The notes: generated by a model not told the origin, from the letters alone. Positions 44,874 to 62,808 are shown, counted from the first letter of the stretch. The stretch: 64,000 bases of DNA from an uncultured archaeon (GCA_963783755.1 CAWAOY010000003.1:42608-106607), one strand, 5' to 3'. Program-made: numbers and translations.

Positions 44874-44892
44874 GAAAATCCCGGGCCGACCG

Positions 44893-44962: not shown

Positions 44963-44982
44963 TCGAAAAGGCGCAGAGGGCC

Positions 44983-45300
44983 ATGGCCGGCGGAGACTGG
45001 GAAGTCAGGGGGCTCTTCGGAAACGAGTATGCGCTTGAGCGCGCGGTGGACGAGATCAAGAAGATGGACAAGGCGCCTGAGTTCGCGGTCCTCGACCGGA
45101 GGAACCTCAAGGTCGTCCTTTCCAAGAACGATTCCGAGACGAAGATGCTCGTAAGGAACATCATCACGATAGCACATGGCTTCGTGGAGAGCGACGCCCC
45201 CCTCGGCGCGTTCGACAAGATGAAGGCCGAGCAGAAGGCCAAGAAGCTCAAGGCCGCGGAAGAGAAGAGGAAGAGGGAAAGGGCGAACGCCCAGCACTAG
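44983..45300 (+). CDS. hypothetical protein (105 aa) with a Lys/Glu-rich tail
   Basis: ATG-initiated ORF with ordinary composition: MAGGDWEVRGLFGNEYALERAVDEIKKMDKAPEFAVLDRRNLKVVL...KAEQKAKKLKAAEEKRKRE. No family recognised. Its stop overlaps the kdpC stop (convergent). Confidence 0.45.
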   Translation: MAGGDWEVRGLFGNEYALERAVDEIKKMDKAPEFAVLDRRNLKVVLSKNDSETKMLVRNIITIAHGFVESDAPLGAFDKMKAEQKAKKLKAAEEKRKRERANAQH

Positions 45301-45771
45301 GCCGTATAGTTCGCGTAGACCGCGGGGAACTGCCCTATCAGGACTAGGTTCACCTTCTGGGCGTTCACGTACGGGCTGCCGAACACCCACCAAACCCCCT
45401 CGACGTTTTGGTTGACGATCCCCTGAAGCGTCGAGGCCGGTATCCCCGTGGCGTTGCTTATTCCTGGGATCTGGGATAGGGCGTCCTGAAGCGTGATGTC
45501 GGGGTCGAACCCGGAGGCCGAGTCGTTCCTGAGGTGGAAGAAGACGGGCTGCGTGTAGTCGGTCGAGTTGACCGCGATCACCGAGCCCACCGTGTGTCCG
45601 TTGAGGGAGGCGAGCTCGCCGTTGGCCTGGTAGGGGAAGGCGAGCTGAGCCACTCCCGTCACCACGAGCGGGAAGAGTAGTGCCGCAGAGCAAGAGCGAG
45701 ACCACGGCGACGGCGACTATCGGCCTCAGGTGGCTTGACTTCTTGTTCTGGTTCTTGTTCGATTCTGCCAT
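45297..45771 (-). CDS. kdpC: potassium-transporting ATPase subunit C, 1 frameshift near 45665
   Basis: N-terminal TM segment (HLRPIVAVAVVSLLLCGTTLP), then VVTGVAQLAFPYQANGEL...SASGFDPDITLQDALSQIPGISNATGIP...GSPYVNAQKVNLVL, matching the KdpC pattern SGLDPHIS...A..Q..R. Confidence 0.8.
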
Positions 45772-45781
45772 TCTTTTTCAC

Positions 45782-47895
45782 CTATAGGGCCGAGATCAGC
45801 AGGTCGATGAGCTTGATTCCCGCGAACGGGACGACGACGCCCCCTATGCCGTAGATCATGACGTTCCTCAGGAAGATGGTCATGGTGTCCGCGGGCTTGA
45901 AGGCGACGCCCCTCATCGCGAGCGGGATCAGGAGCGGTATGATGATGGCGTTGAATATCAGCGCCGAGAGGACAGCCGTGTGCAGCCCCAGCCCGAGGAT
46001 GTTCAGGGCCTCGAGCTGCGGGATGGTCGAGGCGAAGAGCACGGGCATGATCGCGAAGTACTTCGCGACGTCGTTGGCGATGCTGAAGGCGGTGACCGCG
46101 CCGCGCGTCATGAGGAGCTGCTTCCCCAGCATGACGACGTCGATTATCTTCGCGGGGTTCGACTCCAGGTCCACCATGTTCGCGGCCTCCTTCGCAGCCT
46201 CCGTCCCCGAGTTCATGGCCAGTCCCACGTCGGCCACGGCTAGCGCCGGGGCGTCGTTAGTCCCGTCCCCTATCATGGCGACGATCCTCGACTGGGCCTG
46301 CTCCTTCTTCACGATCTCGAACTTGTCCTCTGGCTTCGCGCGTGGGACGTACTCCGTCGATCCCGACCTCCGCCGCGATCGATCTTTGCAGTCAGTGGCT
46401 GGTCGCCGGTTATCATCACCGGCCGGATGCCCAAGGTCTTCACGGCCTGAATCTTCTCCTTGATCCCCTCCTTCATCACGTCCTTCAGCCTGATTATCCC
46501 GATCGCCTCGCCGTTGCGGGCAATCGCCATCGGGCGTCTCTCCGGCTGACGCGATGGTGTTCACCGTCGGGTCGAAGTCGGCGGGGACCGACGCCTACCG
46601 AGCCCTTTATCGCGTCGGGGGCGCCCTTGGTGATGTCGAGCTCGCCCCGGAGCCGTTCTCCTCGCTCCCGCTCGCGTACTTCCGGCTGAACCTCATCCTC
46701 GCCTCTCCCGACTTGTCGGCCTTTGCGGGGACGAAGCCCATCCCTCGCATAATCTTCACTCCGCTCGTCCGGGTGCTCGCAGAGAACTCCTGGAACTCGG
46801 AGAGCGCGAGCGTGTTGAGCTCTCGGGGCACGAAGCCCCGCTCGTAGGCCAGGCTGATGATGCTCCGGCCCTCAGGAGTGTCGTCGTTCCACGAGGAGAG
46901 GAATGCCGCCTCGCCCACCTCCCTCTCGGTGTGCCCTGCTAACGGGAGGAACTCGATCGCCCGCCTGTTCCCCACTGTGATGGTGCCCGTCTTGTCGAGG
47001 AGGATGACGTCGGCGTCCCCAGCGGTCTCGATCGCCTTGCCCGACTTTGCGACGATCTTCCGTGCAGGTAGAGCCTGGATATCCCCGAGAGGCCGATGGC
47101 GGGAAGGAGGGCGCCGATCGTGGTCGGGAGGAGGCAGACATAGAGCGCGATCAGGACGGAGAGGTCTGCGCCCAGGTCGAGCGTGATTGAGAGGCCGAGG
47201 AGTGACCCGATGATGATGGTGAAGATCGCGGTCAGCCCGATGAGGACCATCGTCACTGCCTGCTCGTTCGGCGTCTTCGGCCTCTTCGAGGACTCGACCA
47301 TCCTGATCATCTGGTCGACATAGGTCTCGCCCGGGTTGGCCGTGACCCTCGCCGTCAGGGTGTCGCTCACCACCCGCGAACCGCCGATCAGAGCGTCGCC
47401 CGGAGCCTTCTTGACCGGGGCGGACTCGCCGGTCAGGAGCGACTCGTCGACCATCGCGATGCCCTCCAGCACCTCGGCGTCCATCGGGACGAGGTCGTCC
47501 TTCTCCAGCAGGATGAGGTCGCCCTTCCGGAGGTCCTTCGAGGACGTCTGCGATTATCGTCCTGAGTCCATCCTGTCCCTTACCACCTTCTTGCTGGGGA
47601 CTTCGGTCTCGAGCTTCCTGAGGCTGCTCGCGGTGTTCTTCGCCTGCTGCTCGGCGAGCGAGTCGGAGAGGGTGCTGAACCAGACCGTGATGAGGAGTAT
47701 GATGGCGATCTCGACGTAGAAGAGCCTCTCGCTCGGCGCTGGCGACGGAGACGAAGCCTTGCGGGTAGACGGCCATCGCAGCGACGATGAAGAAGGTGAT
47801 CTCGACGATCAGCATCACAGGGTTCGAGACCAGCCGGGATCGGGCTGAGCCTGACCACGGAGTCAGCAAGGACCTTGCCCCGAGACGATGGACAT
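45782..47895 (-). CDS. kdpB: potassium-transporting P-type ATPase subunit B, at least 7 frameshifts
   Basis: Text: [114 protein letters not shown] (phosphorylation site), [86 protein letters not shown]. Confidence 0.93.
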
Positions 47896-47947
47896 TTGAC
47901 GGCGGCGGCTGACTACCTCTGGCGCCCCGCCGCCCTTCGCGCTCTCG

Positions 47948-49612
47948 CTACCCAAGGCCATTCACGTTCCCCTGGAAGTACGAGAGTATCGGCCCGAGCG
48001 CCAAGAACGGGAGGAAGGTCAGCACGACGAGGATGAGGATGCTCCCGACGAGCACCAGCGAGAAGGTGAGGCTGTCGGTCTTCAGGCCTCCGGCCTCGTT
48101 GCTCCTCTTCCTGCCTATCACCGAGCCTGCGAGCGCGAGCATCAGCCCTATGGGGGCGTATCGCCCGATGAATATGACCGCGGCCGTCGAGACGTTGAAG
48201 AACAGGGTGTTCCCCGACGCGCCGAGGAAGTCCGAGCCGTTGTTCGCGGCGGCGGTGGTGAACTCGTAGAGCACTTGCGTGAACCCGATGGAATTGCCGG
48301 ACAGCCCGATGGCCGCTGCGGCTCCCGAGGCGTATGCAAGGATCGTCGGGACGAGTATTATGATCGGATGAATCAGGAACGCCACAAGGACGATCTTCAC
48401 ATCGCGCGAGTTGATCTTGATGCCCAGATACTCGGGGGTTCTGCCGGACATCAGCCCGACTATGAAGACGGTGATGACGATGTACATGATCATGTAGGCA
48501 AGACCGACCCCCTTTCCTCCGGGGGTCGACTGGATCAGCATCCCCATGAACCCCCCGAGGATCACCAGGGGGTGCATCCCGGAGAGCGCGGAGTTGACCG
48601 ACCCGGTCGTGACAGCCGTCGTCACCACCGTCCAGAAGGCGGACATGAAGCCGCCGAATCCTGGTCTCCATGCCCGGGCCCACTTGGGGCATCTGGGGAT
48701 GAACGCAATCGCTAGGTCGATGATGAAGAGCAGGTAGGCGCCGATGAGCACGGGCCTCGACTCGCGCTTCTTGCCCGAGCAGCTGGCCGAAGACGAAGAC
48801 GAGGGCCGTCGGAAGGAGGAGCATCAGGCAGATCTCGAGGATGTCCGACTGCGGGCTGGGGTTCATGAAGGGATGGCGGAGTTCGCCCCGTAGTATCCGC
48901 CTCCGTTCGTCCCCAGCTGCATGATCGAGACGAGCGAGGCCACAGGCCCCACGAGGACCGAGCCGGTGCCGCCCCTTCGACGGTCTTGATCGGGACATAC
49001 CCGCCGATGGTCTGGGGGACCCCCATCCAGACGAGGATCAGCGCGGCCACGAAGCAGAAGGGGATCAGGAGCCTAGTGAGCGACCTGACGAAGTCGACGT
49101 AGAAGTTCCCCATGTCCTTCGCCCCGATCGACAGCCCGCGCACCATCGCGACCCCCATGCAGATGCCCGTCGCGGCGGAGGTGAACTGGAGGAACTGGAT
49201 CGCGCCCATCTGGCTGAGGTACGAGAGGGTCGTCTCGCCGTTGTAGTGCTGTAGGTTGGTGTTGGTCGCGAACGAGACCACCGTGTTGAGCGCGAGGTCC
49301 CAGTCAGCCCCCCGAAGCCCATCGGGTTCAGGGGGAGCGCTCCTTGGAGGGTGAGGATGGCGAAGGCGATCGCCATCTGGACGATGTTGACGAGCAGGGC
49401 GCGCGAAGAAGTACTCCTTCCAGCCCATCCCGTGGGCGGGGTCGGTCCCCGTCAGCCTGTAGATCCCGTTCTCGATCGGGTTCGAGGAACCGGTCCAGGC
49501 GGCTCGGGGCCTTCGTGTAGATGCCGGTGATGAAGGGCGAGATGAGCCACGCTACGGCCATGGTGCCTCCGAGAATAAGGAATACAGTGACTAGTTGTGG
49601 TATGTCTATCAT
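47948..49612 (-). CDS. kdpA: potassium-transporting ATPase subunit A, about 4 frameshifts
   Basis: Text: MIDIPQLVTVFLILGGTMAVAWLISPFITGIY, NTVVSFATNTNLQHYNGETTLSYLSQMGAIQFLQFTSAATG, GPVASLVSIMQLGTNGGGY (other frame), NSALSGMHPLVILGGFMGMLIQSTPGGKG, GRTPEYLGIKI, YEFTTAAANNGS. The end is LALGPILSYFQGNV. No kdpF-like mini-ORF was recognised upstream. Confidence 0.9.
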
Positions 49613-49661
49613 TTTCTTTCACATTGTCATCCCATGCAGGCGAGACCGCCTGCGGTCCCGC

Positions 49662-49973
49662 CTACTGACGCGATGGCTTGGCTTTCTGCGGCTCGCTGAC
49701 CTTGTCCTGCTCGTCGAGGCACCGGGGACCCTTGTAGGCCTTCAGGACGACGGAGCTCACGGTGCTCTTGACGCCCTTGATCTTCATGATCTTGTTCTTC
49801 AGGACGTCCCTGAACTCTTCGATGTCCTTGGCGGAGAGGAGGGTCACGATGTCGAACTCGCCCGTCACCTCGTAGAGCTCCTCGAGGTTCTCGAGCTTGA
49901 TCAGAGACTGCACTACGTCGTCCATCAGGGACGACTCCACGAAGATGTCCACGAACGCTAGAAATCGGGCCAA
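49662..49973 (-). CDS. stand-alone Lrp/AsnC-type ligand-binding (RAM) domain protein, no HTH
   Basis: Intact 103-aa ORF. Text: AFVDIFVESSLMDDVVQSLIKLENLEELYEVTGEFDIVTLLSAKDIEEFRDVLKNKIMKIKGVKSTVSSVVLKAY. TTG start. It lies 50 nt upstream of kdpA on the same strand. Confidence 0.7.
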   Translation of the reverse strand: MARFLAFVDIFVESSLMDDVVQSLIKLENLEELYEVTGEFDIVTLLSAKDIEEFRDVLKNKIMKIKGVKSTVSSVVLKAYKGPRCLDEQDKVSEPQKAKPSRQ

Positions 49974-50001
49974 CTTATTGCACGGTGATTTTCCAGCCCT
50001 T

Positions 50002-50048
50002 CGACGATTGTCTTATAAGGATTGCTGAGGAGCATACGACGATTGTCT
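50002..50048. promoter_or_regulatory. two perfect 12-nt direct repeats CGACGATTGTCT, 35 nt apart, flanking or overlapping a TATA-like CTTATAAG box upstream of the RAM-kdp genes
   Basis: Read directly at 50002-50013 and 50037-50048. Each is followed by (TAT)AAGG. TCTTATAAGG (50011-50020) lies about 40 nt upstream of the start at 49973. Confidence 0.35.
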
Positions 50049-50161
50049 AAGGTCGTGCAGGGAAAGAATCGACTCTTGCAGTAAGCACGCCGCGTCTCGT
50101 CCCGGGAGTCGCCAATCCGGCGCTCTCCTGCGATTCGCCGCAGGCTCTCGGCCTGTCGGGG

Positions 50162-52329
<2,168 letters not shown>

Positions 52330-52458
52330 TTCGACGCCTCCCCTAGGTCCGATTTGTTATAATCCCTTCGAGGGCTGCGGCGAGACGCCGCTCGGGCGCG
52401 AAGAGTGGGCCGGCGCAAAACTGTTAAGCGGAACTCAGGGCGGTTGGGGCGCAGGTGC

Positions 52459-52543
52459 GCGGGGGTCGCCAAGCCTGGTCAACGGCGTGGGGCTTAGGAC
52501 CCCATCCCTTAGGGGTTCGTGGGTTCGAATCCCACCCCCCGCA
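52459..52543 (+). tRNA. tRNA-Leu, anticodon TAG, class II (long variable arm), no encoded CCA
   Basis: Folded by hand. Acceptor GCGGGGG/CCCCCGC; D arm GCC-AAGCCTGGTCAAC-GGC; anticodon arm TGGGG-CTTAGGA-CCCCA; variable arm TCCCTTAGGGGTTC (CCC/GGG stem); T arm GTGGG-TTCGAAT-CCCAC; discriminator A. Confidence 0.9.
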
Positions 52544-52649
52544 CACATTTTGGGCGGAAATCCCTGATCATTCAGAATTTCGAGTCCATCTTGCAAAGGT
52601 TGTTCAACGTGCTATTCTTCTCGATTGAACAGTTGTATCCTTTAGCACG

Positions 52650-52907
52650 ATGTCCATCGATGAACTAGCATCAAGAGCAACCCCCTCCTATCGTGAATTC
52701 AGAAGATTGACCGCACATTGTCCTAAATATGGTGGAGGCATGATTCTCAAAATTGCCTCAAATCCAGCGAGACATGGTGGAAGAAAATTGAGCATAATAC
52801 TGAGTTGTAGCGAGAACTGCGATAGACAAATTTGGAATTCCGATGCAGACGAAACGGAGCTTACCCATTGGTGGCTCGATGGCTCAAGGAACCTTGTACG
52901 CCCGTGA
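52650..52907 (+). CDS. hypothetical protein (85 aa), possibly Cys-cluster / zinc-binding
   Basis: ATG ORF in low-GC DNA: ...RRLTAHCPKYGGGMILKIASNPARHGGRKLSIILSCSENCDRQIW... No family recognised. Confidence 0.3.
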   Translation: MSIDELASRATPSYREFRRLTAHCPKYGGGMILKIASNPARHGGRKLSIILSCSENCDRQIWNSDADETELTHWWLDGSRNLVRP

Positions 52908-53229
52908 AGTCTATCAATACGACAGACCGCCTTCCGACCACCTAAGCGTCGTGCCCAGAGGGGAGGTCAATCATATCTCCAGCACCGACCTTCCACTTTG
53001 GTCCATCATCCATCACCCCAGCCATTTGACCCGAGAGCACATACCCGACGTGATGGGCTTGGCAACTTTCTGTTTTGGCAATCGGCTTAACACATTCAGA
53101 CCACTCCAGCCAGCATAGTAAGTGCCCCGTCCAATCGTGAAGTACACCGACCTTAACGATTTCGAGCTTACCGTTGGGGAACTTTCTCGTCTCATCTGGA
53201 GTCTTTGCATTCTTCTTGCTTACGGCCAA
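52861..53229 (-). pseudogene. cupin-domain protein interrupted by an in-frame TAG at the position of a conserved Trp
   Basis: ORF 52942..53229 ends ...VGAGDMIDLPSGHDA-TAG. The same frame continues VVGRRSVVLIDFTGVQGS... to TAA at 52861-52863. Cupins of this type read GHDAWVVG...V.IDF, so GCT-TAG-GTG looks like TGG mutated to TAG. Confidence 0.6.
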
Positions 53230-53340
53230 TTTCTAACCTCCACTTTCCTTCTGCGATTCATATAAGCGTTATTTCACGAGAGATTCTGACCCAGCATTGG
53301 GAACACAAGCGATAAAAGATTGACTTGTTGAGCAAACGTC

Positions 53341-53592
53341 ATGCCAAGATACATCGATGTGCACAAGAACGTAAAAGGGGTCAAACTGAACGACGTGGCC
53401 GAGGCGCACGCCAAAGACCTCAAGGTGCAAGGAAAGTATGGGGTCAAATTCCAGAAATACTGGCTTGACGAAAAAGAGGGAACCATATTCTGCCTCTCTG
53501 ACGCACCAAACAAAGAAGCGATATCAAAGGCACACAAGGAAGCCCACGGTCTGCTGCCTCAAGAAACTTTTGAGGTTCAAGAAGGCAGCTAG
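53341..53592 (+). CDS. DUF4242-like small protein (83 aa)
   Basis: Text: MPRYIDVHKNVKGVKLNDVAEAHAKDLKVQGKYGVKFQKYWLDEKEGTIFCLSDAPNKEAISKAHKEAHGLLPQETFEVQ. It fits the remembered DUF4242 pattern (MPxYM..H...G.T...VA.AH..DL.VQ...GV....YW.D...G..FCL..AP......V H.EAHGL). Confidence 0.5.
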   Translation: MPRYIDVHKNVKGVKLNDVAEAHAKDLKVQGKYGVKFQKYWLDEKEGTIFCLSDAPNKEAISKAHKEAHGLLPQETFEVQEGS

Positions 53593-53658
53593 ACGCCCCA
53601 CACTTTCTTTTCTCAGACCGAACCACCAAGCATTTCCACCCAACATGCTTGGTCATCG

Positions 53659-53681
53659 TCCCACCCCCCCGCACACCTTTT
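53659..53681 (+). repeat. direct copy of the tRNA-Leu 3' end (att-like core)
   Basis: TCCCACCCCCCCGCACACCTTTT here, against TCCCACCCCCCGCACACATTTT at 52530-52550 in the tRNA and its flank. One extra C in the C-tract and one substitution downstream. Confidence 0.75.
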
Positions 53682-53687
53682 GACCTC

Positions 53688-54569
53688 TCAGCCGACCGAA
53701 CGCAACAGGATGTGGCGGACCGTGTACTCGTTGATTCTTGAAGGAGAGCCTTGAGTACTCGTCTCTTGCACCATGTGTTCGTCGAGGGTGGCTTTTCTGA
53801 CCCCGAGAGTGACCAAATCGACGTAGATGTCTCCCTTGTATTGGTCAACACCCTCCGTGACGCTCTCCTTACCGCTGGAATCTGGGATGACCATCTTGAC
53901 CTTGCTGTCGCCAGCGTCGTATCCGACCAGCGCGCAGGGAGCTCCATCGACAACACTGACTCCCTTCAATTCAAGGCTTACCTCGCCATTCTGAAAGGTA
54001 GATCCGGGCTTGATCTCATCGACGAACTTGACCGAAGCCTCGATGAAAGACGCGGGATGGACAATCCTTTGACCTATCTCCTTGAGGTCCTGGATTCCTT
54101 TTCCAAACTTCATCGGTCGTGTGAAAATGTCGTTGAAGCTATGGAAGTCAAGGAAATTGACGTAAGAAGCGTAGCGGATGCTGAAGGGTAACGCCTTCTC
54201 CTGATCGTCTGTTAGGTTAACGAATTTCTCTTGCGAGATGCCCCAGAGAGGCCCGCGTTCGTCTCCGGACAGTGTCGGGTTGAACGTGTAGGTCCAGTTT
54301 CTGAGTTGAGGGATGGTAACGGGCGAACTGTCATTGGTTTGTAACTGAAGTTCCGAGACCGCATATCGGTCAAAGTTTCCCGCCGGCGATGTCTTCGGGT
54401 CATAATGGAGGTTTAGGGTATAGGATTCTGTCCCGACTCTCCTTCCGTTCAACTGGAAATGGACATACCTTGTCTGCATACGGAAATCTTGGGCAATCCG
54501 CTTTCTGTCGAAGGAAAAGTCAAACGGACCTCTGAGATCTACGGGTGCCCAGTCCACTGTAGTCGTCAT
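53688..54569 (-). CDS. hypothetical protein (293 aa), apparently all-beta, no recognised family
   Basis: Intact ATG ORF with normal composition: MTTTVDWAPVDLRGPFDFSFDRKRIAQDFRMQTRYVHFQLNGRRVG...FQNGEVSLELKGVSVVDGAPCALVGYDAGDSKVKMVIPD... It is the only gene between two tRNA-end repeats. Confidence 0.55.
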   Translation of the reverse strand: MTTTVDWAPVDLRGPFDFSFDRKRIAQDFRMQTRYVHFQLNGRRVGTESYTLNLHYDPKTSPAGNFDRYAVSELQLQTNDSSPVTIPQLRNWTYTFNPTLSGDERGPLWGISQEKFVNLTDDQEKALPFSIRYASYVNFLDFHSFNDIFTRPMKFGKGIQDLKEIGQRIVHPASFIEASVKFVDEIKPGSTFQNGEVSLELKGVSVVDGAPCALVGYDAGDSKVKMVIPDSSGKESVTEGVDQYKGDIYVDLVTLGVRKATLDEHMVQETSTQGSPSRINEYTVRHILLRSVG

Positions 54570-54706
54570 TATCTCGTGGACAATTCATTCGTCGATTTCC
54601 CTTAATAAGAGAGGACGACAATTCTCATTCTTGAGAAAGGCGGGCATCTCGGCTCTTCGCACACACCCGCCAGCTTAAGGAAGAACGGCAATCAAGGTTA
54701 CTATCA

Positions 54707-54830
54707 GGTGGGATTTGAACTTAAAGTTCAGGTCGCACCCCCCGCACACCTTTCACATGAGATGGTCCGGAAATCGCGCAACCCGTTGGGATTTGAACTC
54801 AAGGTGCGGTTGCCCAACTCCGCCACTCAA
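54707..54830 (+). repeat. tRNA-end-derived structured repeat: one full unit (54707-54784) and a partial second unit (54785-about 54830) head to tail, 78-nt period
   Basis: Unit: GGTGGGATTTGAAC-TTAAA-GTTCAGGTC-GCA-C6-GCACAC-CTTTCACATGAGATGGTCCGGAAA... The next GGGATTTGAAC begins exactly 78 nt later. Confidence 0.8.
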
Positions 54831-54968
54831 ATCACCCCGGCTTCGTGCGTGATGTGCTACCGAGAAGACAGGCGCGACCCGCTCGGCAGTGAACGAGCCA
54901 CCACGCACCGAACTGGCAACGGCTGGGACAGTCCTTCGGGAGAGCGATAGCTGAGTTCGTTTCGCTTG

Positions 54969-55577
54969 CTATCGCGCCCGCGTCGGGGGGATTCTCCGAA
55001 CCACGACCCACCGACGCATCGCAATCTTGCGCACCTTCCGGAACCCCGTCTTCTCGAACATCCTCAAGGTCCCGCTGCACAGGAAGGAAGAGGAGGTCCT
55101 CTCCTCCGTGTAGTCCTCCGGATAAGCCTCGACCGTTCCGCCGCCGAGTTGGGCGATATATCGAAGCGCTTCGCGGAGGGCGAGGGTAGCAATACCTTCT
55201 CCCCGGCGTTCCCGGTCGATGAAGAAGCAGGTGATGCGCCAGTCTGGAAGTTTGAGCAGTCCCTCCTCGTAGGTCTTCTTGCTCCGTATGTTGGGGAGTT
55301 CCGCGGTAAGGCCGAACTGGCACCACCCGACCGCGTTCTGGCCGTCGAAGACGAGAGCGGCACGCGCCCGCCCTTCCCGCACTAACTCCTCTTTCATCGC
55401 TCGGTATGCCGCCGCACCATGTCTCGTTTCCCCGGGCTCGAGATGAAATGAGATGCACCAACACCCGCCGAAGATGCCGTTGTGCTTCTCCACCAGCCGA
55501 GCGAACGCCGGCCAGGTCTCAGGCGTAAGCTGCTTCGATGTGAGAGGCACGGGCCGCGAGGCGCATCGGTTATACAT
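54969..55577 (-). CDS. GNAT-family N-acetyltransferase
   Basis: The C-terminal 202 aa of track ORF 54969..56315, from ATG 55575-55577. Text: ...GGCWCISFH...ALVFDGQNAVGWCQFG...ITCFFIDRERRGEGIATLALREALRYIAQLGGGTVEAYPE...FEKTGFRKV, with the acetyl-CoA motif R-x-x-G-x-G/A. The upstream part of the track ORF is antisense to the next gene. Confidence 0.75.
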   Translation of the reverse strand: MYNRCASRPVPLTSKQLTPETWPAFARLVEKHNGIFGGCWCISFHLEPGETRHGAAAYRAMKEELVREGRARAALVFDGQNAVGWCQFGLTAELPNIRSKKTYEEGLLKLPDWRITCFFIDRERRGEGIATLALREALRYIAQLGGGTVEAYPEDYTEERTSSSFLCSGTLRMFEKTGFRKVRKIAMRRWVVVRRIPPTRAR

Positions 55578-55661
55578 AAGTTGTGAGCGCCCACTCGACG
55601 CTCCGTCTTCATCATCGTCGGTGCCACACGATTCAAGCAGAGATTTATGTAGGGAATACAT

Positions 55662-56375
55662 ATGAAAATCGTCATGGTCAGATTCGTGCTGATTCCAGGC
55701 GCGTGGTTGGGGGCGTGGACCTGGAAGGATGTGACCCCGAGCCTCGAGAAGAAGGGCCATTCTGTCTATCCGGTTACATTGACTGGGATGGGCGAAAGGG
55801 TTCACCTTGCCTCGAACGATGTCGGCATGGAGACGGCCACACAGGATGTCTTGAATGTGATAAAGTACAATGAACTCAACGATTTCGTGCTGGTGGGGCA
55901 CAGCTTCGCGGGTAAAGTGGCGGCCGCCGTGGCGGACCGCACACACGAAAAGGTGGAGAAGATCATTTACGTTGATGCGTTCCGGCCAGAGATTGTGAGG
56001 GACCCTCAAGGCGGATTCGACCCGACTCGCGAGTTCGGGCCACCACCTGGGGGCGGTAATGCGATTCCCCTCACCGAGGAAATTATCCACCGAATCGGTC
56101 GGGATGTCAAAGGCCGCAACCGGAAATGGATGATGTCCATGGCGACGCCCTGGCCAATCAAACTTGCGAAAGACCCGATCACTCTGTCGAAGAACTATGA
56201 CGCTATGAAGGAAAGGTATGTCTTTTGCAGTCTCAGCGGTGACTCGGTCGACGAGATCATCGCCGGGAAGTGGGGAAAGCTCAACGGTCCCTACAAGGTC
56301 ATAGAGACCGGCCACTGGCCGATGATTACTAAACCTGAAGAGCTGGCCAAGGATTTACTATCCCTGGCCAAATGA
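55662..56375 (+). CDS. alpha/beta-fold hydrolase (esterase-like)
   Basis: Intact 237-aa ORF. Text: FVLIPGAWLGAWTWKDVTPSLEKKGHSVYPVTLTGMGER...FVLVGHSFAGKVAAAVA (G-x-S-x-G)...IIYVDAF...IETGHWPMITKPEELAKDL. Confidence 0.8.
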   Translation: MKIVMVRFVLIPGAWLGAWTWKDVTPSLEKKGHSVYPVTLTGMGERVHLASNDVGMETATQDVLNVIKYNELNDFVLVGHSFAGKVAAAVADRTHEKVEKIIYVDAFRPEIVRDPQGGFDPTREFGPPPGGGNAIPLTEEIIHRIGRDVKGRNRKWMMSMATPWPIKLAKDPITLSKNYDAMKERYVFCSLSGDSVDEIIAGKWGKLNGPYKVIETGHWPMITKPEELAKDLLSLAK

Positions 56376-56403
56376 CATCCAGCAGAAATCAGCAAGCGTC
56401 TTT

Positions 56404-56461
56404 CAGCACAGTTTATTGTGCTGAAGTCGAGCCCCTTCTTGGCTTCATTGGCAAGAGGGGC
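56404..56461 (+). terminator. two consecutive stem-loops downstream of the hydrolase gene
   Basis: CAGCAC-AGTTTATT-GTGCTG at 56404-56423. GCCCCT(T)CTTG...CAAGAGGGGC at 56431-56461. They start 29 nt after the stop at 56375. Function is inferred from position only. Confidence 0.3.
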
Positions 56462-56474
56462 CAGGAGGATGAAT

Positions 56475-56645
56475 CGTGAGTTCGAATCCCATCCTGCACA
56501 TCTTTTGCATGAGCGAGGCGGAGAGTCACAGAATTCGGTGGGATTTGAACTCAAAGTTCGAGTTGCAACCCCCCCCGCATACCCTTCACATGAGACGGTC
56601 AGAAAGTTGCAGAATCCAGGGACTTGAGCATGAATCTCAGTGCTA
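56475..56645 (+). repeat. three head-to-tail tRNA-end-derived units: a diverged forward copy of the tRNA 3' end with its flank (56475-56536), a full structured unit (56537-56616) and a degenerate third (56617-about 56645)
   Basis: CGTGAGTTCGAATCCCATCCTGCACATCTTTT...GGCGGAGAG..CAGAATTCGG compares with tRNA CGTGGGTTCGAATCCCACCCCCCGCACACATTTT..GGCGGAAAT..CAGAATTTCG. Then GGTGGGATTTGAAC-TCAAA-GTTCGAGTT-GCAA-C8-GCATAC-CCTTCACATGAGACGGTCAGAAAG. Then GGGACTTGAGC, 79 nt after the previous GGGATTTGAAC. Confidence 0.8.
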
Positions 56646-56759
56646 GACAAAATACGAAACAAGGCAGCCCACAAATCATTGGTTCTCGCAATCTTTCTCT
56701 TTTGTCCCTATCGTTATGATTAATAGCCGGGGGCTTTCGAAAGAGTCGGCAATCCCCAA

Positions 56760-57163
56760 ATGAAGCCATCCGACATTGCCCCTGATCCGTTCAAGCCCCC
56801 GGCCGACCTAATAGTCGTGACGACGCCGTTCGTATCAGGGTATCATGTGACTCGGGTCGATTGGTGCGACGTTTGGACTAATCGTTAAGATCTCGGGGGC
56901 TTAGGGCAGAACATCTTCGCGTACTTCCGAGCTTGGGGTGGCGGAGAGATCAAGAGTATACACGAATCTCCTGGAGCAAGTGCGCCGCCAAGCCATCCAG
57001 CGGCTCGCCGAACATGCAAGAGGCCTTAGGAGCGAACGCTGTCGTCTCTGTCGGTTTTGACACGTCGGAGATGGGCGGGTCGATGACTGAGGTTCTCGCA
57101 TATGGCACTGCAGTGGTAGTGGAGCCCGATACTTCACCTGCACAGCCTGTCGCGCTCCACTGA
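56760..57163 (+). pseudogene. YbjQ/UPF0145-family (heavy-metal-binding-domain-like) protein, 2 frameshifts and an in-frame stop as assembled
   Basis: Text: MKPSDIAPDPFKPPADLIVVTTPFVSGYHVTRV, then (other frames) GQNIFAYFRAWGGGEIK, then ALGANAVVSVGFDTSEMGGSMTEVLAYGTAVVVEP, the hallmark C-terminal block of the family. It could be assembly error rather than true decay. Confidence 0.55.
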
Positions 57164-57170
57164 TATCTTG

Positions 57171-57285
57171 GCTTGCAATCTGAACTTAAAGTTAAGGTTG
57201 CAAACCCCCCCCCCGCACTAATTTCGTGGCCAAGGCTAACTCCCCACGCGGGTCGCTCCGCGAATCCCCGTTGGGAACCCCCAGC
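57171..57285 (+). repeat. most distal tRNA-end-derived structured unit, with extended hairpin and a C10 tract
   Basis: Text: GCTTGCAATCTGAAC-TTAAA-GTTAAGGTTGCAAA-C10-GCACTAATTTCG...CGCGAATCCCCGTTGGGAACC. The hairpin pairs 12 of 13 positions. The tail resembles GGAAATCGCGCAACCCGTTGGGATTTGAAC of the 54.7-kb unit. Confidence 0.7.
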
Positions 57286-57473
57286 GTGGGACATGGTTTT
57301 GAATTCCATAGCTCATTATATACCGCGGATGCTGTTTGGGGCACCGTCTCATGAGTCGTCCCGCCGACGGCCCCCGAGGAGCAATCGGAACGGGGTGCAG
57401 GATGTCGTGACCGGTGTCGAACCGCTTGAAAGCATTCGGCTAGGCAATCGGCGGGTCGAGGGGAGGCGCTGAC

Positions 57474-58875
57474 TTGAGATTCCAGAGCAAATCCGTGTCC
57501 TCGCTCATCCTTGCGAGCGCAATGTGCTCGGCGCTGCTACTTTCCGCGAACTCTTCGCATGCGGCGGCGTCGATTGTCCTCAGTCCGACTGACCCCGCCG
57601 TCGGCACGGCCTGTGCGAGCTTGGGGGGAGCATGGGACGGCTCGACCAAGTGTACTTTGGGCCGCGACCTGACTCTGAACCCGGGCGATTCTCTGGTTGT
57701 CGACCCCAACGCCAACCTCGCCGTGCCCGCGGGAATAACCCTCACCAACGGCGGGGCGATACAGGACTATGGCACTATCGAGACCGGGACTGGGGGATTC
57801 CTCACCAACTCCGGCAACATCACCGCCTTCATCGCAAACGGGACCCTCATCAACCAGGGGACGATGACTAACGAGCCCAAAGAATCCGTCAACGTCGAGC
57901 ACTCTGGGCAGACATCGGTCGAGGTCGGGGAATTCAACTTCACCAACACCGGGACCTCGACAACCTTGGGACGTTCGTCGATTATGGGAATTTCACGAAC
58001 GGCGCCAAAGCCACCATCACGAACTCGGGCAGTTTCAGCTTCTCGTCCGCCACGATAAACGTCGGGAACTTCAGCGCGCCTCTCGCGACCAACGCCGGGA
58101 CCTTCACAAATCTGCCGACGGGCACTTTCACCGTCGACGGGGCGACCTTCAACAACACCGGGACCTCACAAACCCTGGGGCAATCATAGAGACGCAGAAC
58201 GTCTTCAGCCTCATGGAGAACTTCGGGACGATAACGAGCAATGGGACTATAGCAGACACTAGCTTCATCCGCAACAACGGCACGGTGACCAATGCAGGCA
58301 CGATTGCCACCACCGTAGGCTGCGCTGTCGCCGCGTGCGGATCGCTCGTGAACAACGCCGCCCTCATCAACACTGTCGGAGGCACGATCGAGAACGGGGG
58401 CAACTTCGGAAACAACGTCAACGCGACCTTCACCAACTATGGCAACTTCACCAACGCGCGCGTGTTCATCAACAACCCTAACGCGACCGTCATCAACTCA
58501 GGCACGTTCGTAAGCACGGGCACGCTTACGAACCGCGCTTCGATTTACAACAACGCTTCGATCGCCATCTCGGGCATCGTCCTGAACTCGGGATACATCG
58601 GCAACAACCCCAACGGGACAATCACCAACTCGCGGACCATCACGAACACCGGGAGCATCGACAACCTGGGCGTCCTCACAAACGGTTGCGGAGGCGTGAT
58701 AGAAGGTCCAGGGACCATCTCAGGAAACCCGGTCACGAGTACGACTTCGTGCACGACCGCGACGACCAGCACGCCGGTGCCAGAGTTCCCGACCGAGATG
58801 CTCGTTCCCTTGATGCTTTCGATGTTGATCCTTGTCACATTCCTTACGAGGAAGGGTCTTGGCGGCTCGGCCTAG
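57474..58875 (+). CDS. secreted Asn/Gly/Thr-rich repeat protein (predicted beta-helix) with a PEF-CTERM-like sorting signal, 2 frameshifts
   Basis: Signal peptide MRFQSKSVSSLILASAMCSALLLSANSSHA. Dozens of short N-x-G-x-[IFL]-x-N type repeats (TNGGAIQDYGTIETGTGGFLTNSGNITAFIANGTLINQGTMTN...NNGTVTNAGTIAT...NYGNFTNARVFINNPNATVINSGTFVSTGTLTN). The end is TSTPVPEFPTEMLVPLMLSMLILVTFLTRKG. Confidence 0.75.
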
Positions 58876-58934
58876 CACTTGGGCGCCTTCGCGCTAAAGG
58901 GCTTCAGCGTGCAGAATAAAATGGAGAGAGGGAC

Positions 58935-59369
58935 CTAGGCGTCCTGCGCCTTCAGGTCCCTCATCATCTGGTCGAACTGGTCCTTGCTTATCTCTCCCTT
59001 CGCGTACCTCTGCCTCAGGATCTCAGTGGCGTCCTCGTAGTAGCGCCCGTAGCCGCGCCAGTACCCGCGCGAGTAGCCCCCCGCCAGCCCCAACCCCATC
59101 CCATCCCCCAGAAGAGCCACCGGACGACGAAGAAGATGACGAAGAAGAAGATCAGGAAGCCGAAGGGAAAGAAGAAGAACGGGAAGGGATAGTAGCGCGT
59201 ATGGCCTCGCCGGGAAGCCGAAGAGGAAGCGGGGACCACGAAGAGGCCCGCGAGCGAGTAGGATGACCAGTCCGCCGAGCAGCCAGCCCACAAACCCGCG
59301 CCCATGGCGCGTCTGATCGGAGGCCGTGCGTCGACGACGTTGCGTTTGTTGTTGGCTGTAGTTGTTCAT
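58935..59369 (-). CDS. membrane protein with a C-terminal SHOCT domain, 1-2 frameshifts
   Basis: C-terminus EILRQRYAKGEISKDQFDQMMRDLKAQDA (SHOCT pattern). The upstream hydrophobic or aromatic stretch appears in another frame (YYPFPFFFFPFGFLIFFFVIFFVVRWLFWGMGWGWG). Confidence 0.6.
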   Translation of the reverse strand: MNNYSQQQTQRRRRTASDQTRHGRGFVGWLLGGLVILLARGPLRGPRFLFGFPARPYALLSLPVLLLSLRLPDLLLRHLLRRPVALLGDGMGLGLAGGYSRGYWRGYGRYYEDATEILRQRYAKGEISKDQFDQMMRDLKAQDA

Positions 59370-59414
59370 GCCGCGTTTTCGCCGTCATCAGGCTGGAAGG
59401 CGCGGGTTATTGAA

Positions 59415-59456
59415 TATATCGGAAAACCGATATCGGAATAACCGATTCATTTATTA
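59415..59456. promoter_or_regulatory. two overlapping palindromes and a TATA-like box in the SHOCT / padR divergent intergenic region; candidate PadR operator and promoter
   Basis: ATATCGG-AAAA-CCGATAT (59415-59432) overlaps ATCGG-AATAA-CCGAT (59431-59445). TTTATTA (about 59449-59455) lies about 26-32 nt before the padR ATG at 59481. Confidence 0.4.
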
Positions 59457-59480
59457 GCGACCCTGCGGCCATGCTGGTAG

Positions 59481-59909
59481 ATGTGGCCGTTTCGATGGAT
59501 GATGCACAGGAAGCGCGGGCTCCGGATGGCGATAGTCACCATGCTCGCGTCATCCCCAAAGAACGGGGTAGAGTTGATGGACGAGATTGAGAGGATGACG
59601 CAGGGGTGGTGGAGGCCCTCTCCGGGCTCGGTCTACCCCGTGCTGGAGCAGCTCACGAACGACGGCATGGTGAAGAAGAGGGAGGACGGGAGATACGAGC
59701 TCACCGAGAAGGCCAGCGACGAGCTGGAGGGCTCGTTCGGGCACGCCTTCGGGAGGAGGGAGCGCTCGGTGGACGAGATGTTCGACGAGGTCAGCGGGAT
59801 GGTCTCATACATGGAGGAACTGGTAAAGTCCGACCCCGCCAAACTGAAGGAGCACCGGGAGCAGCTTCAAGCCCTCTCGGACAGGCTCTCGAGCATGCTC
59901 AAGGAGTAG
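59481..59909 (+). CDS. PadR-family transcriptional regulator
   Basis: Intact 142-aa ORF. Text: LRMAIVTMLASSPKNGVELMDEIERMTQGWWRPSPGSVYPVLEQLTNDGMVKKREDGRYELTEKA, with a C-terminal coiled segment. Confidence 0.85.
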   Translation: MWPFRWMMHRKRGLRMAIVTMLASSPKNGVELMDEIERMTQGWWRPSPGSVYPVLEQLTNDGMVKKREDGRYELTEKASDELEGSFGHAFGRRERSVDEMFDEVSGMVSYMEELVKSDPAKLKEHREQLQALSDRLSSMLKE

Positions 59910-59961
59910 GTCTTCACCGGGAACCCGGGGCGTTTTTCGATCCTGAGTTCAAAGTTATTAC

Positions 59962-60354
59962 TTGCCAGCAAAGAGAAGGCCCGTGGAAGGGCGTCTCATC
60001 AACGTCCGAAAGCTCGTCGCCTTGGATATCACGCTCCACGGTCCACGATTCATCATGGTCGAGTTCGGTGTCGGGACCCCGGCGATATTGGCGGTCGGGG
60101 GCTACTTGGCGGCGACAGGTCAGCTAGTCCTGGGAGTCTACCTTCTCCTCACTGGGATCAACTACATCCCGCTCCTGATCTACGCTGTGCTGATTGTGCG
60201 AGGGGGCACGGCGGCCGAGGAGGTCGCCGGTGGGTTGTCGCAAGACAGGCACTACGTAAGGAAGTACAGCACGCAGCAGCTCCTGATCTTCGTCCCCTTC
60301 GCTGTCATTCTGCTGACCGTGTTTCAAGAACTGACCGAACCGAGGCGGGCATGA
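59962..60354 (+). CDS. hypothetical membrane protein (130 aa, 3 TM segments)
   Basis: Text: FIMVEFGVGTPAILAVGGYLAATGQLVLGVYLLLTGINYIPLLIYAVLIV...LLIFVPFAVILLTVF. It lies downstream of padR on the same strand. Confidence 0.45.
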   Translation: MPAKRRPVEGRLINVRKLVALDITLHGPRFIMVEFGVGTPAILAVGGYLAATGQLVLGVYLLLTGINYIPLLIYAVLIVRGGTAAEEVAGGLSQDRHYVRKYSTQQLLIFVPFAVILLTVFQELTEPRRA

Positions 60355-60379
60355 CCCTGACGCCCGAAGCTCGTTTCGC

Positions 60380-62205
60380 TCATGCTGAGACTTGCTTAAT
60401 CAGGAACTCGACCGCCGCCGAGTAGCCCGCGATCCTGTTCTTCAGCTTGATCGAGCCCGTGGCCCTCGTCCTCGAACTTCATGAGGTGCGACCTCCCGCC
60501 CGTGCCTCTTGAGCGTCTCCGCGATCTGCTCCGCCTCGCCGATCGGGACGCGCGGGTCGTTAGTCCCGTGGATGATGAAGAGCGGGCGACTTGATGAGGT
60601 GGGCGTTGTTGTTGGGGGATATGCCCTCGAGGAACTCCTTGTCCGCCTCCGGGTCTCCGTACTCCGCTATCCTGAGCTTCCGCCTCCATGGGCCGGTGTT
60701 CTTGAGGAAGGTGACGAAGTTCGAGATCCCGACGATGTCCACCCCCGCCGCCCACATGCCCGGGTTCGAGTAGAGGCACGCAAGGACCATGAAGCCCCCG
60801 TAGCTCCCTCCCCACGCGGCGACCTTCCTCCTGTCGACGGGATACCTCTTCCAGGACGTGCCGGAGCGCGAACTCGGCGTCCTTGACCGTGTCCATCCTC
60901 CCCCTGACGTCGTCGAGGTGGGTGTACCGCCTCCCGTACCCGGTGCTCCCCCTGAAGTTGGTCGCGAGGACCCCGAAGCCGAGCTTCAGGAAGAACTGGA
61001 TGAGCGGGCTGAAACCCGGGCCTGAACTGCGGACTCTGGCCCGCCGTGCAGGAGGACGATGAGGGGGAAACGCGCGGCCGCCGTCTTTGGGAGGTAGAGG
61101 TACGAGGGGACCTCGAGTTCGTCGAAGGAGCGCGTCTTGACCAGATCGGGCTCGACGAAGCTCGACGCCGGGATCCCGCAGGTCGAAGAGGTCGTGACCC
61201 TCGAGAGGCTGCCGCGTGAGCGACCTCTTGTCATCGAACTCGAACACCCAGACGTCGGAGTTGGCCGACGAAGAGGAGAGCGAGAACGCGAGCTTCCTTC
61301 CGTCGTTCTGACCAGTCGAGCCCCCCGACCAGCCCCTTCGGCAGCGGCAGCTCCTTCTGGACGCTTGTTCGGAAGGTCCCAGACCATCAGCCGGGACGCG
61401 CCCCCTTCGTTCACGGTGAACGCGAGGGTCTCCTTGTCCTTCGTCGCGCGACAGGCCCTCGACGTCCCAGTCCTCGGCGTAGACGTACTCGAGCTCGTGG
61501 GACGCGACGTCTATCCTCGCGATCGCCGCGAACTCTCGGTCCTTGTCCGTGGCGCAATACACGAACCTCCCGGTGGCGTCGAAGGTGGGCGAGTAGAAAG
61601 CGGCGTCCCCGGCGTGCGGGGTGAGCAGGTCGGCGCTCTTGTCGTCAAGCTCAAGCAGGAAGAGGTCGTGGTTGAAGGGCGCGTGGGTCACCTCGAAGAG
61701 GATCTTGGAGCCGTCAGGGCTCCAGGTCACCGGATAGGCGTTCCCGTCGTAGCGGTAGACCAGTTCCGTGGACCGGTCGTCCAAGTCCTGGACGTAGATG
61801 TCGAAGTACTCCTGGCTCCTGGCGTTGGAGGAGAAGGTGATGGCGTTCTCGTCGGGAGACCAGTCTCCCCAGTTGTGGATCACGTTCGGCTCGTCGGTGA
61901 GCTTGACGACGGAGTCGCCTCCTCCCTCCAGCATGTGGATTTGGAATCGCTCGCTGCCGCCGCGGTCGATCCCGAAGGCTATCCTGTCGCTCTTTGGCGC
62001 GAAGCTGAGGAACCCGACCCTCTCGTCCTCCAGGGTGATCTGCTGAGGGCGCGTGGAAAGGCCGGTCATCCAGTCTGGGGACCCCGTGAGGTCGGAGAGG
62101 TAGGCGAGCCTCTTGCCGTCCGGGAGAATTCGGGCGAGTAGGCGACTTTATCGAGAGGTAGCGCTTGAGGCTGTACGCCAGTCCTCGGGGCTGGGATGGC
62201 TCCAA
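60380..62205 (-). CDS. S9-family serine peptidase (prolyl oligopeptidase / acylaminoacyl-peptidase type) with an N-terminal beta-propeller, at least 6 frameshifts
   Basis: Propeller text: FAPKSDRIAFGIDRGGSERFQIHMLE...WSPDENAITFSSNA...VTWSPDGSKILFEV. Hydrolase text: VLATNFRGSTGYGRRY, AAWGGSYGGFMVLA (nucleophile GxSxG), PLFIIHGTNDPRVP (other frame), FEDEGHGL. The likely true end IKLKNRIAGYSAAVEFLIKQVSA needs a 1-nt correction (stop at 60380-60382). Confidence 0.85.
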
Positions 62206-62808
62206 GGGCCGGTTGCCATTGGGGTGCTTAAAGCTCGACGGTGCGTTGCCGCTACATCAGGGGGCGGTCGCGACGACGCGCATTCGCATCTCCATCCCTG
62301 GGAGATAGACTATCGAGACGCTTTCGTAGACAGACGGGTTTCATCACGAAGAATGTCCGTTTCCGGTGTCGCTTGAACTCGCTGAGTGTCGTTGACCTGC
62401 GATCGGCACCGTCGCCATCTGGCCGCTGTTCTGGGCGCCTCGACGATGTAGTCGCCCATCAGCTGACTCCAGTCCGTCGCGTGCAGGTCACGCGTAGTCC
62501 CGTTCCCAGGCGCGACGATGAGCCAGCCGCTGCCGAACATCTGCCGTGCTGGACGAAGGCGATCGCCGGAGTCGCGTCTCGTTCATGCGCAGACGTCGTT
62601 GAGGCTCATGGTTCCATGTCGTGGTCGGTCTCCATCGTCGACCTCGTGCCTAGAGGACGAAACCGCTGCCGCACGCCAGAGGACCACGACCGTGACTCCG
62701 AAGACCGCCGTTGTGACCGCCCGGCGTTCACGAGTTTGATAGGAGCATCGGCGTTGTGGCGGCCAGAAAAATTCATTTATCGGTTTTTCAACCTTGCTTG
62801 CAGATTCG

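Follow-up and report, generated by a model that had tools for sequence, protein, structure and literature searches.

A tRNA-Leu-anchored array of integrase-less gene cassettes with a composite, tRNA-mimicking junction module in Nitrososphaerota

How did an AT-rich island, divided into small gene segments by copies of a tRNA 3' end, come to lie behind an intact tRNA-Leu gene without an integrase, and are its segments worn-down remnants or units that are exchanged? We addressed this question at the tRNA-Leu(UAG) locus of an uncultured archaeon (GCA_963783755.1, CAWAOY010000003.1:42608-106607) by analysing the whole 64,000-nucleotide stretch, here called the window, in which all positions are counted from the first letter. 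Judged from its sequence and from that of its relatives, the region is best read as a tRNA-anchored accretion array of non-autonomous, integron-like cassettes with 1-3 cargo genes each. The original prediction, made from the window sequence alone, had read the repeated tRNA ends as integration-type scars that delimit non-autonomous segments. That part stands, with the refinement that the segments appear to act as exchangeable cassettes rather than as worn-down remnants.

The island and its junction modules

ARAGORN and Rfam agree on the intact tRNA-Leu(UAG) gene that had been predicted at 52459 (Table 1). Its sequence begins GCGGGGGTCGCCAAGCCTGG and is archaeal in style, and it shares an identical 3' half with the tRNA-Leu(UAG) or tRNA-Leu(UAA) genes at the head of the sister arrays L001, L008, L024, L005 and L009 (loci are given by number). 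This gene heads the array, in what is probably a role like that of attB or attI. Archaeal information-processing genes recognised by Pfam in the window include RNA polymerase Rpb1/Rpb2 domains, eEF1A and a NusA-like KH protein, the closest public relative of the window backbone is a Nitrososphaerota metagenome-assembled genome (MAG; L001), and the sequencing runs that contain parts of the island are peat metagenomes. The island itself (52545-57226, 4.7 kb) has a GC content of 53.2% relative to the 63.2% observed outside it, with segments 1, 2, 3 and 4 at 47.8%, 51.3%, 57.9% (62.1% in the GNAT part) and 54.4%, respectively, and its tetranucleotide distance from the backbone amounts to z = 5.9-10 over 52-58 kb. 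This compositional check bears out the AT-rich island that had been proposed, and the island DNA is compositionally foreign.

The array runs in the order tRNA with core, segment 1, junction A, segment 2, unit B and B', followed by segment 3, C, unit D, a degenerate palindrome, segment 4, unit E and the backbone. A full unit is ~78 nt long and consists of a palindrome derived from the T-arm of the tRNA, a core and a tail of ~35 nt, often with a second palindrome next to it, which gives modules of ~78-115 nt. The unit palindrome, GGTGGGATTTGAAC-TTAAA-GTTCAGGTYGCACC, has a 14-5-14 geometry in which the right arm directly repeats the tRNA T-loop and T-stem, in diverged form, and the left arm is an inverted copy. 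The core, CCCCCCGCAYAC, corresponds to the acceptor 3' strand, the discriminator and 3 more nucleotides, with a C-run that varies from 5 to 11, and the conserved tail reads CTTTCACATGAGAYGGTC.GRAAWT.G.GCAACC. Most junctions go on with the second palindrome, whose core is intact or degenerate. Palindrome cells were paired in 76.1% of cases versus 24-50% in controls in which the partner was slid, and the unit palindrome is real.

All five of the tRNA-end copies that had been listed are present, in the same orientation and on the + strand. They include the copies in C (TCCCATCCTGCACAT, 56487-56501), in unit D (56564-56582) and in unit E (57203-57218), and exact or near-exact copies of the tRNA-end core lie at 53663-76, 54736-49 and 56569-82. 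Their description as five bare ends did not hold up, as the repeats form structured units of ~78 nt and also comprise B' (54785-54821) and a degenerate palindrome (56618-45). When the core pattern CACCCCCCGCAYAC (12-14 nt) was searched with at most 2 mismatches, five matches were obtained in the 64 kb, four of them on the + strand within 52.5-56.6 kb; shuffled controls gave a mean of 0.99 matches, and none of 100 shuffles reached five. A profile scan of the window with nhmmer recovered the full ~78-nt units at E values of 1e-21 to 1e-24, only in the island and only on the + strand. Five arrays carry the module at nearly all of their junctions, and within the 64 kb it occurs nowhere outside the array. 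Two simpler accounts of it were tried and rejected: the tail is not an ancestral tRNA trailer, as the distal flanks of the arrays differ, and a miniature inverted-repeat transposable element (MITE), with inverted repeats and a target duplication, does not fit, as the 5-nt spacers around the unit differ and junction A is without any arm.

The predicted lack of an integrase was also observed. All stop-to-stop frames of at least 90 aa in the window were covered, and their family lists, which are complete, contain neither tyrosine or serine recombinases nor transposases at E ≤ 1e-3. Likewise, no recombinase or transposase family and no integrase fragment was detectable by Pfam or PHROGs in 35 small open reading frames (ORFs) of the island, and the ORFs that read through the units had no Pfam or PHROG match, a search that very short or divergent integrase fragments could escape. 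Among the related arrays with gene calls, the Pfam columns list no recombinase family within ±10 kb of most of them; one, L026, has a DDE transposase gene near its array.

Related arrays and their cargo

Relatives of the array were collected by scans for the exact palindrome pattern, which gave 2 genome and 6 metagenome loci, and by look-ups of cargo homologues, which added more; about ten related loci were recovered. The assemblies come from several projects, with L001 (MFD09222.bin.2.69) from NCBI, L024 (bin of ERZ25039458 contig_109192) from ENA and L003-L014 from JGI. Note that the scans of large collections used one exact pattern, which diverged units or an integrase-bearing 'master' element may escape. 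Comparison of the locus among related genomes, which the original prediction had put forward as a check, revealed different cargo in L001 and L003 and the same segments in another order in L024. Specifically, the L024 backbone exhibits 90.4% substitution identity to window positions 43510-52550 over 9.1 kb, and its array runs from tRNA-Leu(UAG) through tail and B', segment 3, a second palindrome, segment 2, a PadR-ABC-ABC2 cassette and a 269-aa cassette to a last unit, followed by a right flank that differs from that of the window. The block at 54733-56627 that holds segment 3 matches L024 with 98.4% identity and lies there directly behind the tRNA, as the first cassette. Because L024 has segment 3 before segment 2, these two segments are permuted between L024 and the window. 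Segments 1 and 4 are both missing from L001 and L024, and segment 1 is also nearly missing from four peat runs.

Segment 2 is shared with three relatives, with an identity to the window of 97.5% in L024, 95.4% in L001 and 94.6% in L009. In L001, where it is the sole cassette, the backbone is 87-88% identical to the window, while the noncoding part of segment 2 is 94.9% identical and its third codon positions 92%, versus 84-86% in backbone genes. L003 has a right flank that aligns to window positions 57290-62271 at 80% with an E-like unit just before it, and its cassettes differ. The same units also occur in arrays at a second type of locus (L005 and L009), where the tRNA-Leu(UAA) gene contains an intron of 14 nt and has PolX as its neighbour. 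Segment 2 is present at the UAA locus of L009, which belongs to a different lineage, in an arrangement that was found in six independent JGI samples, and L005 and L009 have in common a 464-aa cassette with 92.3% identity, relative to 82-86% in their backbones. Part of a membrane-protein cassette is common to L003 and L005 (91%), and L008 carries an APH-type kinase cassette past tRNA-Leu(UAG). Since shared cassettes are less diverged than the backbone, and since their order and content vary, the cassettes are discrete, exchangeable and younger than the surrounding DNA.

The breakpoints of these exchanges are located at the cores, where identity between the window and L024 changes in a step from 97-98% to about 80%. 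In both of these genomes segment 3 is accompanied by its tail (33/35) and B' (37/37), and to their left lies the tRNA in L024 and the segment 2 palindrome in the window. In unit D the palindrome is 30/32 identical to L024 and the tail only 28/35, which places the breakpoint at the unit D core. The right palindrome and core of segment 2 are kept in four genomes (the window, L001, L009 and L024), with different DNA following. Before segment 2, the tail, second palindrome and a core-like sequence (core') are found in L001, L009 and L024, as opposed to the palindrome-less, tRNA-type junction A in the window, and junction A is for this reason explained by a crossover at core'. These breakpoints between the window and its relatives all lie in or beside the C-run/GCAC core. 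This pattern suggests that a cassette comprises the tail, second palindrome and core' at its left, the cargo, and the palindrome and core at its right, with exchanges at core or core'.

In regards to the tRNA-Leu(UAA) loci, the tRNA genes lie at about 9800-9905 in L009 (reverse strand), at 1176-1281 in L005 and at 1002-1112 in L006. Their 14-nt intron follows position 37, and ARAGORN in bacterial mode misses such genes. In their 3' half these genes do not differ from the tRNA-Leu(UAG) of the window. A free-standing 274-aa HTH + LAGLIDADG_3 gene occupies 11129-11953 of L009, between PolX and tRNA-Leu(UAA), and is also found in L006 and L010, while in L005 PolX and tRNA-Leu(UAA) are just 44 nt apart. 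A gene resembling those of homing endonucleases seems to have been inserted here, 5' of the tRNA that bears the array.

Related archaea (L007, L015, L017/L018 and L025) have arrays that are built on other tRNA-end cores and possess T-loop-derived palindromes of their own. The L017/L018 core is CTGGACGGGCTA, preceded by the palindrome GGATTCGCACC-6-GGTGCGGACCC, and L015 and L025 have the core TTCCCGTCGGGCCCGC, which in L025 follows an apparent intron-bearing tRNA where ARAGORN calls none. The L025 array contains esterase and GNAT homologues as separate cassettes, and toxin-antitoxin pairs are among the cargo in sister arrays. No tyrosine or serine recombinase is listed in the Pfam columns of the loci with these other-tRNA arrays, among which L026 is the one with the DDE transposase gene. 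In L007, toxin-antitoxin cassettes follow each other every ~620-640 nt (2858, 3474 and 4115), and both there and in L017 (6686-11715) a 3'-end copy from a different tRNA marks the boundary of each of the toxin-antitoxin (including RelE/RHH and PIN/VapB) and small-enzyme cassettes; the stretches covered contain no recombinase gene. L002 (100-270) combines the same palindrome, GGTGGGATTTGAACTTAAAGTTCAGGTTAC, with another tRNA-end core, GCCCGGGGCAC, of which a further copy lies 110 nt upstream beside an ArsR/oxidoreductase block; here one palindrome occurs with another target.

The cargo of the window itself is listed with the junctions in Table 1. Pfam upholds the gene families that had been recognised, namely DUF4242, GNAT, an esterase (alpha/beta hydrolase) and YbjQ, with weak support for the cupin. 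The 293-aa protein of segment 2 had been called an orphan and is not one, with >160 homologues in Nitrososphaerales and in MAGs labelled Bathyarchaeia, although it has no PDB or Pfam sequence match. Its AlphaFold model (pLDDT 92.6) is a beta-barrel with an inner helix that weakly matches barrels of the LmcA/DUF1329 type (TM about 0.35). We considered whether this protein could be a hidden recombinase and rejected the idea, because it is acidic (isoelectric point 5.6), a confidently modelled beta-barrel with weak matches to lipid-binding barrels, and has homologues in ordinary chromosomal settings, where distant members adjoin ABC-2 transporters. The 293-aa protein is passenger cargo. Members of its family repeatedly adjoin an ABC_tran and ABC2_membrane pair (L020 8286-10903, L015 7679-10882 and L024 10997-14485), which hints at a functional link to an ABC-2 exporter, perhaps as a partner that binds a lipid or another hydrophobic ligand.

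Of the genes that had been called broken, the YbjQ frame is indeed in pieces. Its status as a true pseudogene is not upheld, as single-base indels are plentiful in this assembly, with 147 gap positions in 9.1 kb of backbone relative to L024; segment 2 has none and segment 3 has six. The 'broken' YbjQ is thus not safely a pseudogene, as its frameshifts may be assembly errors, and pseudogene calls in the backbone are unreliable for the same reason. The indels relative to L024 are confined to the high-GC backbone (43510-52550) and are nearly absent from the low-GC cassettes (53668-56627), a pattern consistent with sequencing errors that depend on composition, in one assembly or in both.

Past the last unit, window positions 57291-60398 (3.1 kb) encode PEF-CTERM-type repeat proteins, a SHOCT protein and PadR and are of intermediate composition (59.5% GC, tetranucleotide z 3-5). 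This block is common to L003; L001 and L024 have another block in its place, with an OFeT_1/TauE-like permease, a homologue of which is also located 3' of the UAA-locus arrays in L005 and L009. Rfam, promoter and terminator scans gave no further useful features.

Table 1. Coordinates of the tRNA gene, junctions, segments and cargo genes in the window
Feature	Position	Strand	Description and evidence
tRNA-Leu(UAG), intact, without encoded CCA	52459..52543	+	ARAGORN 52459-52544; Rfam RF00005 52459-52543, 52.7 bits
Core CACCCCCCGCACAC	52533..52546	+	T-stem 3' end, acceptor 3' strand, discriminator and 3 further nt; putative crossover region
Segment 1	52547..53658	.	47.8% GC; contents by Pfam
Small Cys-containing ORF (segment 1)	52650-52907	+	
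Cupin-like ORF (segment 1)	52942-53229	-	Pfam, weak, 9e-4
DUF4242/SCO4226-like gene (segment 1)	53341-53592	+	Pfam 8.5e-22
Junction A TCCCACCCCCCCGCACAC	53659..53676	+	tRNA-type copy without preceding palindrome; sequence match
Segment 2 cargo, 293-aa beta-barrel protein	53677..54706	-	Gene 53688-54569; AlphaFold model, homologues
Unit B	54707..54784	+	Palindrome GGTGGGATTTGAAC-TTAAA-GTTCAGGTCGCACC, core 54736-49, tail CTTTCACATGAGATGGTCCGGAAATCGCGCAACCC; nhmmer E 3e-24
B', second palindrome with degenerate core	54785..54821	+	GTTGGGATTTGAAC-TCAAG-GTGCGGTTGCCCAAC; left-end structure of cassette 3; L024 comparison
Segment 3 cargo	54822..56475	.	Pfam
GNAT acetyltransferase (segment 3)	54969-55601	-	Pfam 1.2e-5
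Alpha/beta hydrolase (segment 3)	55662-56375	+	Abhydrolase_6 5e-17
C, diverged T-arm/acceptor-end copy (GAGTTCGAATCCCATCCTGCACAT)	56476..56536	+	Followed by tail-like 35 nt; kept with segment 3 in L024
Unit D	56537..56617	+	Palindrome, C8 run, GCATAC, tail; nhmmer E 1e-21
Degenerate second palindrome AGGGACTTGAGCATGAATCTCAGTGC	56618..56645	+	Position and resemblance to L001 GTTGGGACTTGAACTTAAAGTGCGGTGC; weak evidence
Segment 4 cargo, YbjQ-family frame in pieces (56760-56888, 56933-57163)	56646..57171	+	YbjQ_1 PF01906 5.4e-10
Unit E, distal array boundary	57172..57218	+	Terminal palindrome TTGCAATCTGAAC-TTAAA-GTTAAGGTTGCAA, C10 run, GCAC; nhmmer E 2e-5

Candidate mechanisms

With a little more confidence than doubt, we propose that a site-specific recombinase, unlinked to the array and acting at the core, inserts the integrase-less cassettes, excises them and changes their order. 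In this mechanism a cassette would have as its left end the ~35-nt tail and the second palindrome with its core-like remnant, and as its right end the T-arm-derived palindrome and the 12-14-nt core that matches the tRNA-Leu 3' end. The recombinase would be encoded outside the array, most likely as a tyrosine recombinase from a helper element or from the host. Circularised cassettes would go in at the core of the tRNA or at that of any resident cassette, and excision would occur by recombination of core with core, with both events leaving the tRNA intact and yielding co-oriented stacks. Recombination at the inner core' would give rise to cassettes without a left end, such as that at junction A, and core'-by-core excision could leave cargo-less 'solo' units behind. 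We infer the enzyme, its type and the circular intermediate.

Several observations weigh against this proposal. No recombinase was identified, so the trans-acting enzyme is an assumption, and neither an excised circle nor an empty site was seen within one population in Logan contigs. Two joints in these contigs that appear to go back to an earlier part of the array match the cassette orders of L009 and L024, and they are not evidence of circles because such orders in other strains explain them. Homologous recombination could take place between units of 78-115 nt that are 80-95% identical and could mimic much of the shuffling, and the cassette order of the window rests on one indel-rich assembly. 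The palindrome exhibits no covariation beyond chance, with 76.1% paired relative to 75.5% in shuffles, and its DNA folding energy is unexceptional (z -0.4 to -2.5). As the covariation equals that of shuffles and the predicted single-strand folds are unremarkable, we do not claim a folded single-strand site. The palindromes may be binding sites for a protein.

The most serious alternative is that the repeats are passive scars, left by integrase-bearing elements that integrated serially at tRNA-Leu and lost their integrases, after which RadA-dependent homologous recombination between units, or between tRNA and unit, followed DNA exchange among relatives. Tandem integration and integrase loss are documented in archaea (PMC8371274; PMC6563490), tycheposon islands contain partial tRNAs and degenerate elements, and the length and similarity of the units would allow some homologous recombination. 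Such a history would also need no unseen enzyme, in keeping with the lack of a recombinase family in the window and near most arrays. We nevertheless regard it as unlikely. No integrase debris is detectable in the island ORFs, random decay would not keep both module arms at nearly every junction, and the ends of shared cassettes match exactly across four genomes and two tRNA genes. Moreover, the identity steps fall at the 12-14-nt core rather than across the unit, and at the UAG locus the continuous identity between tRNA and units is 12-17 nt, which is short for homologous recombination.

If the enzyme were that of the host, the palindromes would be dif-like sites at which the chromosomal XerA moves the cassettes, much as in integrative mobile elements exploiting Xer (IMEX) or in the pdif modules of Acinetobacter. 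This would make a dedicated recombinase unnecessary and has the appeal that the palindrome consists of two inverted arms of ~11-14 nt with a short spacer between them, given that archaeal dif is 11-6-11, that PaXerA binds stem-loop att sites (PMC8371274) and that small recombinase-less dif modules are known (PMC6449649). It is improbable all the same, as the spacer is 5 nt rather than 6, the putative crossover lies in the adjacent C-run core outside the spacer, junction A has no palindrome and the sites are direct rather than alternating in orientation. We give little credence as well to movement as a single-strand hairpin by an HUH (IS200/IS605-type) transposase or by an enzyme resembling the integron integrase, with insertion 3' of a fixed core. 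A sub-terminal palindrome at both cassette ends, insertion after a fixed sequence and stacking in one orientation without target duplication would suit this route, as would the cargo-less 78-nt units, which are too small for double-stranded circles. These solo units are explained equally well as footprints of core'-by-core excision, however, and the route is further opposed by the chance-level covariation and weak folds, by the missing attC signatures RYYYAAC and GTTRRRY, and by the lack of a Y1/HUH or IntI family in the window or neighbouring loci. Finally, chimeric joining of unrelated contigs at the repeats is highly improbable. The assembly is indel-rich, and no other data cover segment 1, segment 4 or the junctions of the two; against this, the module and cassettes recur in independent assemblies from several projects (L001, L024 and L003-L014), the L009 arrangement is found in six samples and Logan contigs contain the stretch that joins segment 3 to D by way of C. 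Taken with the results above, each point on which the original prediction had staked itself came out in its favour: the compositional break is real, the content differs among relatives and an artefact is unlikely.

The proposal of an unlinked recombinase can be widened, at a lower level of confidence. It is possible, although we doubt it more than we credit it, that peat Nitrososphaerota, and apparently other archaeal lineages too, possess a dedicated integron-like platform for gene capture at the tRNA 3' end, in which integrase-less cassettes with a tRNA-mimicking site of ~115 nt are moved by an unlinked recombinase between genomes and between tRNA-Leu genes. If the cassettes are actively moved, this would be an archaeal gene-collecting system parallel to integrons, built on a tRNA end and with its enzyme elsewhere. 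It would explain how small accessory genes, including acetyltransferases, esterases, kinases and toxin-antitoxin pairs, are swapped at fixed sites in soil and peat archaea without visible plasmids, viruses or integrases. The 12-14-nt core with its flanking palindromes provides a testable substrate for finding the recombinase, and for annotators the implication is that integrase-less islands beside tRNA genes are not necessarily dead remnants. If the repeats are merely scars reshuffled by homologous recombination, the locus is an ordinary genomic islet and a tidy example of one.

Comparison with known systems

In having direct repeats of a tRNA 3' end together with an intact tRNA, the locus has the form of a site used by tRNA-integrating elements, and in having no integrase gene or remnant within the array it departs from them. 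Among such systems, tRNA-associated accretion as in cis-mobilizable elements (CIMEs) and the tycheposons of Prochlorococcus (bioRxiv 10.1101/2020.12.28.424599) resemble the island in that co-oriented partial tRNA 3' ends bound the inserts, newcomers displace older inserts from the tRNA, some members are integrase-less and close strains differ in content. Unlike these elements, the island cassettes measure 0.5-2.5 kb with 1-3 cargo genes, about ten arrays have yielded no integrase or fragment of one, and the junctions carry a composite module of palindrome, core, tail and palindrome. The cassettes of the island are moreover permuted and common to two different tRNA genes, and their host is archaeal (Nitrososphaerota). 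The int(N) and int(C) fragments overlapping att repeats that mark SSV-type capture were not found by Pfam or PHROG matching of the ORFs that read through the units, and neither a Y1_Tnp nor an OrfB family, as in IS200/IS605 elements and palindrome-associated transposable elements (PATEs), is present in the window. No viral or plasmid donor with a matching attP was found either, in IMG/VR searched with the palindrome, core plus tail and tRNA end or in phage or plasmid collections.

Within the same phylum, the survey of integrated mobile elements of Thaumarchaeota by Krupovic et al. 2019 (PMC6563490) reports short att sites (median 17 bp), known tandem integration and tRNA targets that include intron-bearing ones, all of which recall the island. 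The elements that it describes differ in being proviruses, casposons, integrative and conjugative elements (ICEs) and cryptic elements, with sizes from several kb upwards and most of them with an integrase, and term searches of that survey returned no account of integrase-less cassettes below 2 kb that form arrays and are joined by a structured module. The pdif modules and IMEX (PMC6449649) resemble the island as small, recombinase-less accessory modules between short palindromic sites, with pdif modules shuffled among replicons, presumably by a host enzyme. They differ in that pdif sites are 28-bp XerC/XerD sites that alternate in orientation on plasmids, whereas those of the island are direct, tRNA-derived and chromosomal, with a putative crossover beside the palindrome and not within it.

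In outcome the locus is like integrons and clusters of attC sites lacking integron integrases (CALINs), those of archaea included. These too have small cassettes, mostly of 1-2 genes, that end in an imperfect palindrome followed by a crossover point, and they stack at one fixed site with an order that is shuffled among relatives and with accessory-enzyme cargo; discrete cassettes likewise vary among the window, L024, L001 and L003. The island differs from integrons in having no IntI and in a site that mimics a tRNA 3' end. The attC architecture of R'' (RYYYAAC), L'', L' and R' (GTTRRRY) boxes is missing from this site, and the alignment reveals arms that are adjacent (..TTTGAAC / GTTCAGG..). 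Insertion is at the end of a tRNA gene rather than at attI, and the genes point in both directions, which leaves no common promoter logic. The locus is a cassette array of Nitrososphaerota that is anchored on a tRNA gene, has no integrase and carries a composite junction module that mimics a tRNA; by analogy it would function in a manner akin to CIME accretion and be integron-like in its outcome.

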